Below, one piece after another: positions 5,377 to 7,601 of a stretch of 48,031 nucleotides of DNA (positions within the stretch are counted from its first letter, which is position 1; the number at the start of each line of letters is the position of its first letter). Source of the DNA: Chitinophagaceae bacterium (GTDB lineage Bacteria > Bacteroidota > Bacteroidia > Chitinophagales > Chitinophagaceae); NCBI GenBank assembly GCA_036275415.1, contig DASUDW010000142.1, positions 1 through 48,031 on the forward strand, written 5' to 3'. Below the pieces are notes generated by a model, which saw only the letters and a list, made by a program, of their open reading frames with translations, had not been told where the DNA came from and made no database searches. The position numbers and the translations under genes are program-made.

Positions 5377-5408
5377 AAAAAAGCTATCAGTAAAGGCTGA
5401 TAGCTTTT
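5377..5408. terminator. Bidirectional intrinsic terminator between convergent genes
   Basis: AAAAGCTATCAG-taaagg-CTGATAGCTTTT hairpin with A and T tracts on both sides. Confidence 0.8.
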
Positions 5409-5430: not shown

Positions 5431-6540
5431 TTAATCTCCTTTCACCATGAACACATAGTCCTGAATCTTCTTTACCTGGTCTTTTTTGTCCATGCCCCTG
5501 ACAGATGACTTACCGGTAATTTTCAATGACTGGTAAGCCGTATCTTTTTTCAGTTCTTCAATGGCGTTATAGATATATTTTGACTGAACGGCAAATGCCA
5601 CTCCTTCGGCTTCCATTTCTTTGGTGCTGATAATACCGATTACTTCTCCGTCATGATTGAAAACAGGTCCGCCGCTGTTACCGGGGTTGGCGGCAATGCC
5701 GAGCTGGCAACTCAATGTATCTCCGTTGAAACCGGTTTTGGCACTCAGGTAACCTTCGCTGTATACAATTTCATTGCGGGGGAAACCCAGTGTATAAATA
5801 GGCTCTGCCACATCGGTAGATGATTTGCGGATACCATAAGGCAGGCTGCCCATCGATTTAAATGCGTCATCATCAATCTTCAATATGGCAATATCCTTAT
5901 CGGCAAAAACCTTTGCTACCACGGCCTTGTACTGATCACCTTTATTATTGATAACAACAATGTTTTTAGAGTTCCGTACAATGTGGGCATTGGTTACCAG
6001 GTATCCTTTTCCGTCTATCAGGAAGCCGGAGCCGCCGGCCTTGAACGATGGGGCGGGAGCAGGGGCGGTATTGATCTTGGTCCGGAGGTTATTTACTTCC
6101 TTACCCTGGTTGTCCTGTACTTTTTTAATATCCTGTATATCCCGGCTCAGTTCTGTGAGCTTTGCATTATCTGCTTTGGGTGAAAAAGTATTTACCAGTG
6201 CTGTGATGGCAAGTGTAGTAACACCGGCAAACACGGCCGCAATGGCAGCTACCCGGCGGTACCTTTTCCACAGGTAAACCACCTTGGCCTTGCCCTGCAG
6301 TTTCATAGAATCGATCTTACCCTGTTCAGTAAGGTCGGTATGAATATCATTCAGCGAACTGCGGAATGATTTGCGTTCGCCATAGTGGTTCATTTGCTGA
6401 AGGAATAGAGTATGCTCCACCACCAGCAGGTCGATCTCAGCATTCGTTTTCCGCAGGTTTTCAAACTGCAGCCTTTCATCCGGTTTCATTTCTCCCCGGA
6501 TATATCGCTCAACCGCATCTAAAATTTTAATATCATCCAT
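5431..6540 (-). CDS. Membrane-anchored trypsin-like (S1C) serine protease with N-terminal anti-sigma-like domain
   Basis: Triad motifs TNAH, DIAILKI, GNSGGP; TM segment VAAIAAVFAGVTTLAITALV; coiled coil; no PDZ domain; N-terminal ERYIRGEMKPDERLQFE helix; start overlaps the sigma stop codon. Confidence 0.88.
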   Translation of the reverse strand: MDDIKILDAVERYIRGEMKPDERLQFENLRKTNAEIDLLVVEHTLFLQQMNHYGERKSFRSSLNDIHTDLTEQGKIDSMKLQGKAKVVYLWKRYRRVAAIAAVFAGVTTLAITALVNTFSPKADNAKLTELSRDIQDIKKVQDNQGKEVNNLRTKINTAPAPAPSFKAGGSGFLIDGKGYLVTNAHIVRNSKNIVVINNKGDQYKAVVAKVFADKDIAILKIDDDAFKSMGSLPYGIRKSSTDVAEPIYTLGFPRNEIVYSEGYLSAKTGFNGDTLSCQLGIAANPGNSGGPVFNHDGEVIGIISTKEMEAEGVAFAVQSKYIYNAIEELKKDTAYQSLKITGKSSVRGMDKKDQVKKIQDYVFMVKGD

Positions 6541-7108
6541 CACTGTTCCCGTTTTTATAATCTGTAAAAAATATCTTTTTAAGCCTTGTCAGGCACTTGT
6601 ATTTCTGGTTTTTGGCATTATCGGCATTAGTATATCCAAACCTGGCTGCTATGGTCTGCATTGTTTGCTTTTGCAGGTAATACGCTTCCAGCAGGCTTTT
6701 ACAAGGCTCGCCCAGGTTGTTGATGGCTTTTTCCATCAATTCAAACTCGGCATTTCGCTGCTCATGGGCTTCAAGGTCTTCTTCCACCGCCACTACCTGT
6801 TCCATGCTGTCGCCGGGGTCGGAGTACCGGTTTTGCTGCTGTAACCTTTTTAACCAAAGCCTTCTGCAAACCGAATAGAGAAAGGTTTTAAGCTGACAAT
6901 TCAGTTCAAAAGAACCCGATCTCACCTTTTCATAAAGAACTATCATCGCTTCCTGGAATATATCCCTGGCATCATCTGCGGAGCCGTTGTTGTTGATTAT
7001 CAGGGACTGAATCATGTTATAGTTCTCCCGGTAAATTGTTTCAACGGCCTTTTTATCGCTGGCGGCTAATCCTGTCAGTAGGGCTTTTTCGTCTGTCTGA
7101 GGTTTCAC
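6533..7108 (-). CDS. ECF-type sigma-70 factor
   Basis: 191 aa; region 2 (DARDIFQEAMIVLY, FLYSVCRRLWLK) and region 4 HTH (CKSLLEAYY, MQTIAARFGY, AKNQKYKCL); GTG start. Confidence 0.93.
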   Translation of the reverse strand: MKPQTDEKALLTGLAASDKKAVETIYRENYNMIQSLIINNNGSADDARDIFQEAMIVLYEKVRSGSFELNCQLKTFLYSVCRRLWLKRLQQQNRYSDPGDSMEQVVAVEEDLEAHEQRNAEFELMEKAINNLGEPCKSLLEAYYLQKQTMQTIAARFGYTNADNAKNQKYKCLTRLKKIFFTDYKNGNSDG

Positions 7109-7116
7109 AATCCTTT

Positions 7117-7147
7117 GTTTAATACAGGATTCTGCAAAAAGTAACCC
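7117..7147 (-). promoter_or_regulatory. Putative ECF-dependent promoter for the sigma-protease operon
   Basis: Minus strand reads GGGTTAC-TTTTTGCAGAATCCT(15 nt)-GTATTAAAC, ending 8 nt before the GTG; twin copy at 7220-7249. Confidence 0.65.
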
Positions 7148-7219
7148 TGTGGCACCGCAAAATATTAAATAATAAGGCGGTTAGGGGGTAAAAGGGCAGA
7201 AAAAAAATTTTTTAAATCC

Positions 7220-7249
7220 GGGTTACCTTTTTTCGAAACGGGTATAAAC
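7220..7249 (+). promoter_or_regulatory. Putative ECF-dependent promoter for the small lipoprotein gene
   Basis: GGGTTAC-CTTTTTTCGAAACGG(15 nt)-GTATAAAC; same boxes and spacing as the minus-strand copy. Confidence 0.65.
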
Positions 7250-7290
7250 AGCGAAATATTTCAACAAATCATTCTAAAAAGCACAACAAA

Positions 7291-7491
7291 ATGAAGAAGT
7301 TTTTTGCAATTGCATTCATCGCTGCTGCTACCCTGGTAGCTTGTAACAACTCTGGCGAAAAGAAAGAAGAAACTAAAGACACTACAGTAGCTCCGGCTCC
7401 TGCTGACACTACAGCTGCACCGGCTCCTGCTGATACTACAGCTGCTCCGGCTCCTGCTGACACTACAGCTGCTCCGGCTCCTGCTAAGTAA
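7291..7491 (+). CDS. Small Ala/Pro/Thr-rich lipoprotein
   Basis: MKKFF start, hydrophobic core and lipobox LVAC; A-rich region before the ATG; own terminator. Confidence 0.85.
   Translation: MKKFFAIAFIAAATLVACNNSGEKKEETKDTTVAPAPADTTAAPAPADTTAAPAPADTTAAPAPAK
7378..7485 (+). repeat. 4 x 27-bp coding tandem repeat (DTT[V/A]APAPA)
   Basis: GAYACTACAG(TA/CT)GCWCCGGCTCCTGCT four times in tandem. Confidence 0.95.
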
Positions 7492-7512
7492 TTTCAAGCG
7501 GCAAGCAATCGT

Positions 7513-7548
7513 CGAAGGCCTTTCCTACAGGAAGGGCCTTCGTATTTT
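7513..7548 (+). terminator. Intrinsic terminator after the lipoprotein gene
   Basis: CGAAGGCCTTTCC-taca-GGAAGGGCCTTCG followed by TATTTT. Confidence 0.8.
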
Positions 7549-7593
7549 AAGTAACTGGTTTAAAATACATTAGCCATTTCGGCTTATAAAGGT

Positions 7594-7601
7594 TACCTTT
7601 G
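7594..7601 (+). promoter_or_regulatory. -7 promoter element for the DEAD-box helicase
   Basis: TACCTTTG. Confidence 0.6.

Follow-up and report, generated by a model that had tools for sequence, protein, structure and literature searches.

An apparently uncharacterised sigma factor cassette of Bacteroidota combining a predicted anti-sigma/HtrA-type protease fusion with a divergent lipoprotein gene

A real, conserved and apparently uncharacterised three-gene cassette was analysed in a 48,031-nucleotide stretch of DNA from a Chitinophagaceae bacterium (assembly GCA_036275415.1, contig DASUDW010000142.1; contig C142 of genome G000 in our numbering, hereafter the window). It comprises a gene for a sigma factor of the extracytoplasmic function (ECF) type, an overlapping gene for a membrane protein in which a predicted anti-sigma domain (ASD) is joined to an HtrA-type serine protease, and a divergent gene for a small lipoprotein. 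The anatomy of the locus, the invariant catalytic triad, the conserved adjacency of the genes and a bipartite motif before both transcription units were directly observed. The sigma factor and the fusion very probably form a true sigma/anti-sigma pair, and there is a good probability that the lipoprotein gene is a direct target of the sigma. More tentatively, the anti-sigma may act as its own site-1 protease, a signal-triggered self-cleavage followed by RseP freeing the sigma; that self-cleavage is the trigger is held with the same reserve. The features of the cassette, in window coordinates, are as follows.

6533..7108, minus strand: ECF sigma factor, 191 amino acids (open reading frame (ORF) list; TIGR02937 above cut-off)
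5431..6543, minus strand: predicted anti-sigma/protease fusion, 370 amino acids, numbered from GTG (ORF, Pfam, alignment, AlphaFold2 (AF2) model)
6325..6540, minus strand: predicted cytoplasmic three-helix domain, residues 2-73, class I anti-sigma-like, without zinc ligands
6193..6249, minus strand: single transmembrane (TM) helix, residues 99-117; candidate region for a site-2 (RseP) cut
6067..6168, minus strand: periplasmic coiled-coil stalk, residues 126-159, of low sequence conservation
5551..6039, minus strand: HtrA/DegS-type protease domain, residues 169-331, no PDZ
5983-5985, 5893-5895 and 5674-5676, minus strand: catalytic codons of H187, D217 and S290
5437..5487, minus strand: C-terminal helix and strand, residues 353-369 (pLDDT 93-94)
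7119..7147, minus strand: predicted ECF promoter for the sigma operon, with the -35 element GGGTTAC at 7141-7147, 15-nt spacer, -10 GTATTAA at 7119-7125
7220..7248, plus strand: predicted ECF promoter for the lipoprotein gene, with the -35 element GGGTTAC at 7220-7226, 15-nt spacer, -10 GTATAAA at 7242-7248
7291..7491, plus strand: lipoprotein, 66 amino acids, lipobox Cys18, C-terminal Lys
5379..5408, both strands: bidirectional terminator-like hairpin, common to a convergent nucleotidyltransferase gene
7513..7542, plus strand: terminator-like hairpin 3' of the lipoprotein gene

The sigma scored 74.4 bits against TIGR02937 (sigma70-ECF, cut-off 42.9) and matched Sigma70_r2 in Pfam. The fusion ORF encodes 370 residues from a GTG at 6543 or 369 from an ATG at 6540, and its overlap with the sigma gene amounts to 11 or 8 nucleotides (nt) respectively. 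A terminator scan returned 7 sites against 3.8+-1.7 in shuffled sequence, a modest excess by count alone; the hairpins at 5379-5408 and 7513-7542 have the longest stems (12-13 bp) and each lies directly 3' of a stop codon. An initial annotation had described an overlap of 8 nt, a fusion with a helical N-terminus, one TM helix, a coiled coil and an intact His/Asp/Ser triad without PDZ, and a divergent 66-residue lipoprotein gene with terminators at both ends. The ORFs (the overlap being counted from the ATG), the Pfam matches, the heptads, the AF2 model, an alignment of 39 orthologues and the two hairpins agree with this description.

Of 24 same-genus genomes, 21 had an orthologue more than 50% identical to the fusion (frameshifted in two), and none was found in same-genus genomes G001, G011 and G023. 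The source records of close homologues label them Chitinophagaceae. The same layout of sigma, protease and divergent lipoprotein was seen in all 20 same-genus loci long enough, a further locus (L022) ending before the sigma. In the two loci with frameshifted fusion genes (L023 in G021 and L024 in G004) the sigma, lipoprotein and promoters are intact, and the frameshifts may reflect assembly error or natural loss. No full-length orthologue was found in 16 other families of the order. A phylum-wide sigma search, in which up to 11 candidates per genome were scored, gave matches in at least 42 of 300 other genomes; the best 29 matches were examined and the top 21 all had a trypsin fusion at position +1. 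Of 250 other genomes of the class, 37, belonging to 9 families, gave a full-length fusion in a profile search. A fresh set of 32 loci absent from the alignments was then assembled from 20 of the 25 new profile-search loci and 12 full-length loci from named records, a 33rd (L108) being dropped as it matched in the protease domain only; genera of the named records, among the matches listed, include Chitinophaga, Pedobacter, Mucilaginibacter, Sphingobacterium and Hymenobacter. The sigma adjoined the fusion in 32/32 of these loci and a divergent lipoprotein was present in 27/32. The three-gene synteny for which the initial annotation had proposed a survey is conserved.

The fusion has the gene position and topology of a class I anti-sigma factor, being encoded at +1 of an ECF gene with a single TM helix and a predicted cytoplasmic N-terminus. 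An AF2 model of the whole protein (pLDDT 82, pTM 0.54), built on 39 sequences after locus L009 and the broken or cut loci L022-L024 had been left out, has helices at residues 2-16, 21-33 and 35-73, followed by the TM helix, a stalk helix at 126-159, the protease and a C-terminal helix-strand. The only hydrophobic 19-mer, at 99-117, is preceded by a mean of 3.4 Lys/Arg and followed by 1.0 in the 39 orthologues, an excess which indicates an N-in/C-out topology; a topology test using D-S/T glycosylation motifs was weak (0.71 against 0.42 per 100 residues). Within the TM helix A102-A103 is invariant and A106 nearly so. The heptad of the stalk is clean, with L129, I136, Q143, V150 and I157 at position a and L132, I139, Q146 and L153 at position d.

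Evidence for the nature of the N-terminal domain came from comparison with the +1 partners of related sigmas (profile-profile E 1e-7, probability 94%, 92 columns). All five of these partners match zf-HC2, two above cut-off, and carry an HxxxCxxC motif; the domain of the fusion has no cysteine and, unlike these distant partners, lacks the zinc motif. When the domain was folded alone (pLDDT 88) and the model searched against 48,161 structure chains, anti-sigma domains made up three of the five chains at Z>=5, namely RsiW (Z 5.8, root mean square deviation (rmsd) 5.1 over 70 residues), RslA (Z 5.7, rmsd 5.4 over 62) and MucA (Z 5.3, rmsd 2.6 over 53), all three ranking among the top four, and seven of the top 50, the others being RskA, PupR, RseA and 7lq3. 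A search of PDB sequences with the N-terminal alignment recovered PPAR ligand-binding helices (E 2e-4), taken as a chance helical match, and no anti-sigma factor was among the best 60 of its 134-137 rows. The domain is likely, on modelling and remote homology, to be a non-zinc class I ASD. Its proposed anti-sigma character gains support from homology to zf-HC2-bearing proteins and from an enrichment, at low Z (4-6), of anti-sigma chains in the structure search.

Trypsin_2 was matched by the protease domain at residues 171-304 (E 2e-23), and the Pfam search of the fusion returned no PDZ family. The domain has the TNxH and GNSGG motifs, the trypsin fold and the His-Asp-Ser triad, H187, D217 and S290 being invariant in 39/39 aligned orthologues; in the fresh set the His and Ser were each present in 32/32 and the Asp in 31/32. 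It is the best-conserved region of the fusion, with 53% mean pairwise identity. Its scores fall far under the cut-offs of the DegS/DegP families (TIGR02038, 67 bits with a cut-off of 423; TIGR02037, 87 bits with a cut-off of 416). The fold is closest to DegS-deltaPDZ and HtrA1, about 165 residues superposing at Z 20-21 and rmsd 2-3 A. The structural alignments begin at about residue 74 of DegS and 83 of DegP, past the first helix and strand of the family. Because they begin at the second strand and the C-terminal helix-strand is confidently placed, the model suggests a circular permutation, in which that helix-strand would replace the HtrA N-terminal helix and first strand and the stalk would enter at the position of loop LA. 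A profile comparison of the C-terminal tail with N-terminal segments of seven canonical trypsin-like ORFs gave E 0.75, no better than control windows. A hidden Markov model of the tail matched only related permuted-type proteins at loci L025, L026 and L027, which are 514-576 amino acids long and have other N-terminal domains with the same trypsin domain and helix-strand tail; the candidate permuted protease may therefore be a wider module. An acid specificity read from K308 was dropped because HtrA1 carries a lysine at the same place, and Pfam matches to New_glue and S-antigen were set aside as below cut-off and of low complexity. The genome also encodes an M50 site-2 protease.

Between the divergent genes the best inverted repeat, with arms at 7119-7147 and 7220-7248, consists of two back-to-back copies of GGGTTAC-N15-GTAT(T/A)AA, and in the general form GGGTTAC-N15/16-GTAT(T/A)AA the motif occurs in about 70 orthologous loci. 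In a first set of loci GGTTAC was found 5' of the sigma in 41/42 and 5' of the lipoprotein in 41/41. In a survey of 74 loci, in which the GGTTAC columns were fixed by selection, the motif was found 5' of the sigma in 73, and the second box lay at a spacer of 15 or 16 nt in 70/73 sigma-side and 59/65 lipoprotein-side sites and never at 14 or 17; farther upstream only an A/T tract is conserved. The -10 box is 2-14 nt from the sigma start codon in 37/38 loci, and in the window the GTG start falls 10 nt past the predicted -10 element, making the gene near-leaderless. When a matrix trained without this genome was run over its 3.3 Mb, only two high sites emerged and these were the two cassette promoters (32.4 and 31.1), the next scoring 19.2, at shuffle level; 24 sites scored at least 13 bits, where shuffled sequence gave 10-16, and no site other than the two was accepted. 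A loose regular-expression scan of the genome for the regulon showed no spacer preference. In five other genomes the exact pattern gave 11 matches against one control match, nine at the cassette, among them those of three tandem lipoprotein genes in G296, and one each preceding an unlinked lipoprotein paralogue and a glycogen-binding-module protein. The motif is present at the unlinked paralogue (G102) and at each of three tandem lipoprotein copies (G296).

The motif is a predicted ECF promoter for both the sigma operon and the lipoprotein gene. Since a single promoter-like motif is directed at both genes and also accompanies the unlinked and tandem copies of the lipoprotein gene, the lipoprotein is likely to be a direct output of the sigma, as the initial annotation had proposed. 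Several further observations concern these elements. Three or four tandem lipoprotein genes, most with their own promoter copy, are found at the cassette in loci L094, L095, L102 and L066 (G296). The glycogen-binding-module protein is a 96-residue AMPK1_CBM protein (L062:1193-1483, G102) with a perfect motif copy upstream and may be an extra regulon member. A palindrome, GAAATATTTC, lies at 7253-7262, just past the lipoprotein -10 box and near the expected start site, and occurs in 24/65 loci; it is possibly an operator or start-site element.

The lipoprotein gene contains four 27-nt repeats (7378-7485) and the protein four D-T-T O-glycosylation motifs, at T31, T40, T49 and T58. Its mature homologues are 36-94 amino acids long, nearly without aromatics, Leu or Ile, and variable in sequence, with Asp followed by Ser or Thr at 195 of 225 Asp residues. 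In all, 178 D-S/T-(A/I/L/V/M/T) motifs were counted in 41 homologues, 40 of which have at least one; shuffled sequences gave 31.6+-5.0, with a maximum of 50. D-S/T-(A/L/V/I/M/T) is the O-glycosylation motif of non-cytoplasmic proteins in Bacteroidota and is generally almost fully substituted (PMC12871550), and in P. gingivalis it is biased to periplasm-facing proteins (PMC8729774). This density of motifs suggests that the lipoprotein is likely to be a lipid-anchored glycan brush. A lysine falls within the last three residues in 37/41 homologues and invites speculation about an Lpp-like role, resembling Braun's lipoprotein; no supporting paper was among the best 12 of 30 literature matches. At locus L052 the divergent lipoprotein is rich in Glu and lacks any D-S/T motif, and motifs are fewer in several distant families; what is conserved may be an extended hydrophilic tail and not glycosylation alone. 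Another small D(S/T)-rich lipoprotein in the genome (G000:C202, plus strand, start 102) has no motif in its 101 nt upstream. Only unnamed Bacteroidota lipoprotein clusters were found in the Atlas, and the family has no common Pfam family. The nearest named family is the short Bacteroidota lipoprotein family PG1828 (NF050142), matched over model positions 1-54 of 59 (E 2e-6), although the match, at 28.5 bits, does not reach the cut-off of 50. PG1828 may be linked with SigH/PG1827, a neighbouring sigma, but no paper naming both was among the literature matches listed. Exact pieces of 146-153 nt of the lipoprotein gene and its leader are present in contigs from three RNA libraries of one study; as contigs only, with a share of 0.06, these can neither rank genes nor show transcription or its level. 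The sigma and protease genes had no close cover in these contigs, which is uninformative.

Relatives of the sigma put the fusion in context. The weaker eight of the examined matches were all sigma-related loci with a similar N-terminal helical domain and TM helix and different outer domains. In the same genome a paralogous ECF, 31% identical to the sigma (G000:C364:8347-8835; L002:1510-2797), has a 254-residue partner with a similar N-terminal domain (weak RseA_N and zf-HC2 matches) and a TPR-like C-terminus; GGTTAC cores lie upstream of it, without a matching second box. In distant families related sigmas (L056-L060) are preceded by another conserved element (TTCAC...ATGTCATTAA-like), and their partners are of the zinc-finger kind. 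In the available portions of the main text and supplement of the ECF reclassification (PMC7826278) neither a trypsin-fused anti-sigma group nor a GGTTAC promoter was found; the word trypsin occurs once in the supplement, for ECF14 with a trypsin-like gene at +2, and GGTTAC never. None of the Bacteroidetes group descriptions there has the layout of sigma, trypsin-fused anti-sigma and lipoprotein.

The mechanism tentatively proposed is as follows. The cytoplasmic three-helix domain would keep the sigma at the membrane. The protease heads, likely oligomerised through the coiled stalk, would be switched on by an envelope signal, most likely a misfolded periplasmic polypeptide bound by the protease, and an activated head would cleave a neighbouring subunit in its stalk or juxtamembrane segment. 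RseP would then cleave the Ala-rich TM helix, and the released sigma would transcribe from two promoters in the genome, that of its own operon, giving feedback and reset, and that of the lipoprotein gene, whose product would supply the envelope with a glycan brush. An elaborated form of this proposal would see in the fusion RseA and DegS as one polypeptide, with an intact circularly permuted HtrA making its own signal-dependent site-1 cut and a minimal regulon leading to a densely O-glycosylated, Lys-tipped lipoprotein, possibly an Lpp-like tether of the outer membrane, whose unglycosylated or mislocalised form might itself be the signal, placing envelope glycosylation under feedback; taken whole, this is improbable.

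A number of observations weigh against the proposed mechanism or its components. The stalk (22% identity) and linker (15%) are the least conserved regions of the fusion and show no conserved cleavage motif; HtrA-type enzymes accept varied aliphatic sites, so that a missing motif is weak evidence. DegS without its PDZ domain is constitutively active, and the off state of the fusion therefore needs explaining. The genome encodes other HtrA-type proteases, possible site-1 enzymes, and related sigmas keep the N-terminal partner with other outer domains, which argues that the sigma family needs no fused protease. Fold matches of the N-terminal domain are singly weak (Z 4-6), lower than the tool requires for helical bundles, and the unrelated 7xyb (Z 6.1) heads the list; Foldseek gave nothing at E<=0.001, with RslA ranked first without significance, Pfam gave no anti-sigma match for the fusion's own N-terminal domain, and zf-HC2 matched in 8/72 family members with a best E of 0.002 and none over cut-off. 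In the fresh set a strict 15-nt matrix passed 23/32 sigma-side sites, and the spacer was widened to 15-16 nt only after the sites had been inspected, the wider pattern then being found in 31/32 sigma-side sites and 24/27 lipoprotein loci against a background of 0.3% per window. A divergent lipoprotein was not seen in five of the 32 fresh loci, in one because the contig ends, and a second D(S/T)-rich lipoprotein gene in the genome (G000:C29, minus strand, start 3414) has no motif upstream.

Three other readings were considered. The sigma/anti-sigma pair and lipoprotein output may be real while the protease serves as a sensor or as a quality-control effector on other periplasmic proteins, the first cut being made by a separate site-1 protease (a PDZ-bearing HtrA or Prc) or the stalk relaying a conformational change. 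The absence of a conserved scissile motif, the exchangeable outer domain and the other HtrA-type genes all favour this, as do known ECF operons with a separate HtrA such as that reported for ECF14 (PMC7826278), but across 9 families the fusion persists as a single ORF whose triad is invariant, and its active site lies close to its own stalk; this reading is rather unlikely. It is less likely still that the system is largely constitutive, through continual self-processing or a FecR-like pro-sigma N-terminal fragment, such that the sigma would be private to an always-on, abundant housekeeping lipoprotein and only tuned by feedback. The missing PDZ brake, the regulon of two promoters in the genome, the pieces of lipoprotein gene in RNA-library contigs (not shown to be transcripts) and the constitutive self-processing described for other anti-sigmas (PMC11506125) are consistent with this. 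However, an autoregulatory promoter stands before the sigma in 73/74 loci, as is typical of inducible ECFs, and the contig data show neither gene rank nor expression level. Very unlikely is a reading in which the motif is recognised by another factor (the primary sigma, a paralogous ECF or a repressor) and the lipoprotein is co-regulated rather than an output of the sigma. GGTTACCTTT resembles TAnnTTTG, given as the primary-sigma box (PMC9723704), there is a related ECF in the genome, and a TAnnTTTG box prefixed by GGT, with no second box, lies 5' of the neighbouring DEAD-box helicase gene (7591-7601). Against this, TAnnTTTG fits only 9/73 sigma-side and 0/65 lipoprotein-side sites, for which the primary-sigma interpretation was rejected, and only 2 of the 652 TAnnTTTGC boxes in the genome have a second box at the motif distance; the motif is moreover bipartite, directional and non-palindromic with fixed spacing, and hugs the sigma start codon.

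Comparison with known systems places the proposed self-cleaving fusion among several partial precedents. In the sigmaE-RseA-DegS-RseP pathway of E. coli and the AlgU-MucA-AlgW/MucD pathway of P. aeruginosa an ECF with an autoregulated promoter is held by an anti-sigma with a class I-type ASD and a single TM helix and an HtrA-family protease takes part. The cassette shares the likely ASD type, the single TM helix, the HtrA-family protease fold and the predicted autoregulated promoter but differs in having anti-sigma and protease in one polypeptide, no PDZ sensor and no RseB-like gene, and in a predicted regulon of two promoters rather than dozens. By analogy it may work like sigmaE-RseA-DegS collapsed into two genes. 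The closest parallel is DdvA/DdvS of Myxococcus xanthus, in which an ECF is co-transcribed with a single-pass class I anti-sigma carrying its own periplasmic protease domain (PMC11506125). Autoproteolysis in trans followed by RseP was proposed for DdvA, truncated forms of which are RseP substrates, although the protein differs from the cassette fusion in its zinc ASD, its TPR-CHAT domain of about 900 residues (cysteine, caspase-like) with an incomplete active site, and its defence-island regulon (PMC11506125). The cassette has instead a predicted ASD without zinc ligands, an HtrA-type serine protease that is compact and has the complete triad, a coiled stalk and, as its probable output, one small lipoprotein, and with no TPR or CHAT match in Pfam the fusion is not of the DdvA type. 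RsgI and FecR/FoxR resemble the proposed mechanism in that the cut preceding RseP comes from the anti-sigma itself, but those cuts are described as constitutive and non-enzymatic (PMC11506125), whereas the fusion keeps a catalytic triad. HtrAw of Brevibacillus sp. WF146, a membrane-anchored HtrA which on substrate binding cleaves its own anchor intermolecularly, offers a precedent for cleavage in trans (PMC5359297), although it is described with a PDZ domain and with neither an anti-sigma domain nor a role in signalling.

No published description of the cassette was found in the literature covered, outside which most subscription journals lie. The initial annotation knew of no characterised system with this exact layout; the concept is less new than it supposed, having a precedent in DdvA (PMC11506125). 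For DdvA, an unknown signal and an incomplete active site kept the proposed enzymatic self-cleavage from being tested (PMC11506125). In the cassette, which is small, occurs in cultured genera and combines a full triad with two defined promoters and a single gene as read-out, self-cleavage by an anti-sigma factor would be testable. It also provides a candidate promoter for a clade of Bacteroidota ECF sigma factors and a lead to the function of a widespread family of tiny lipoproteins.

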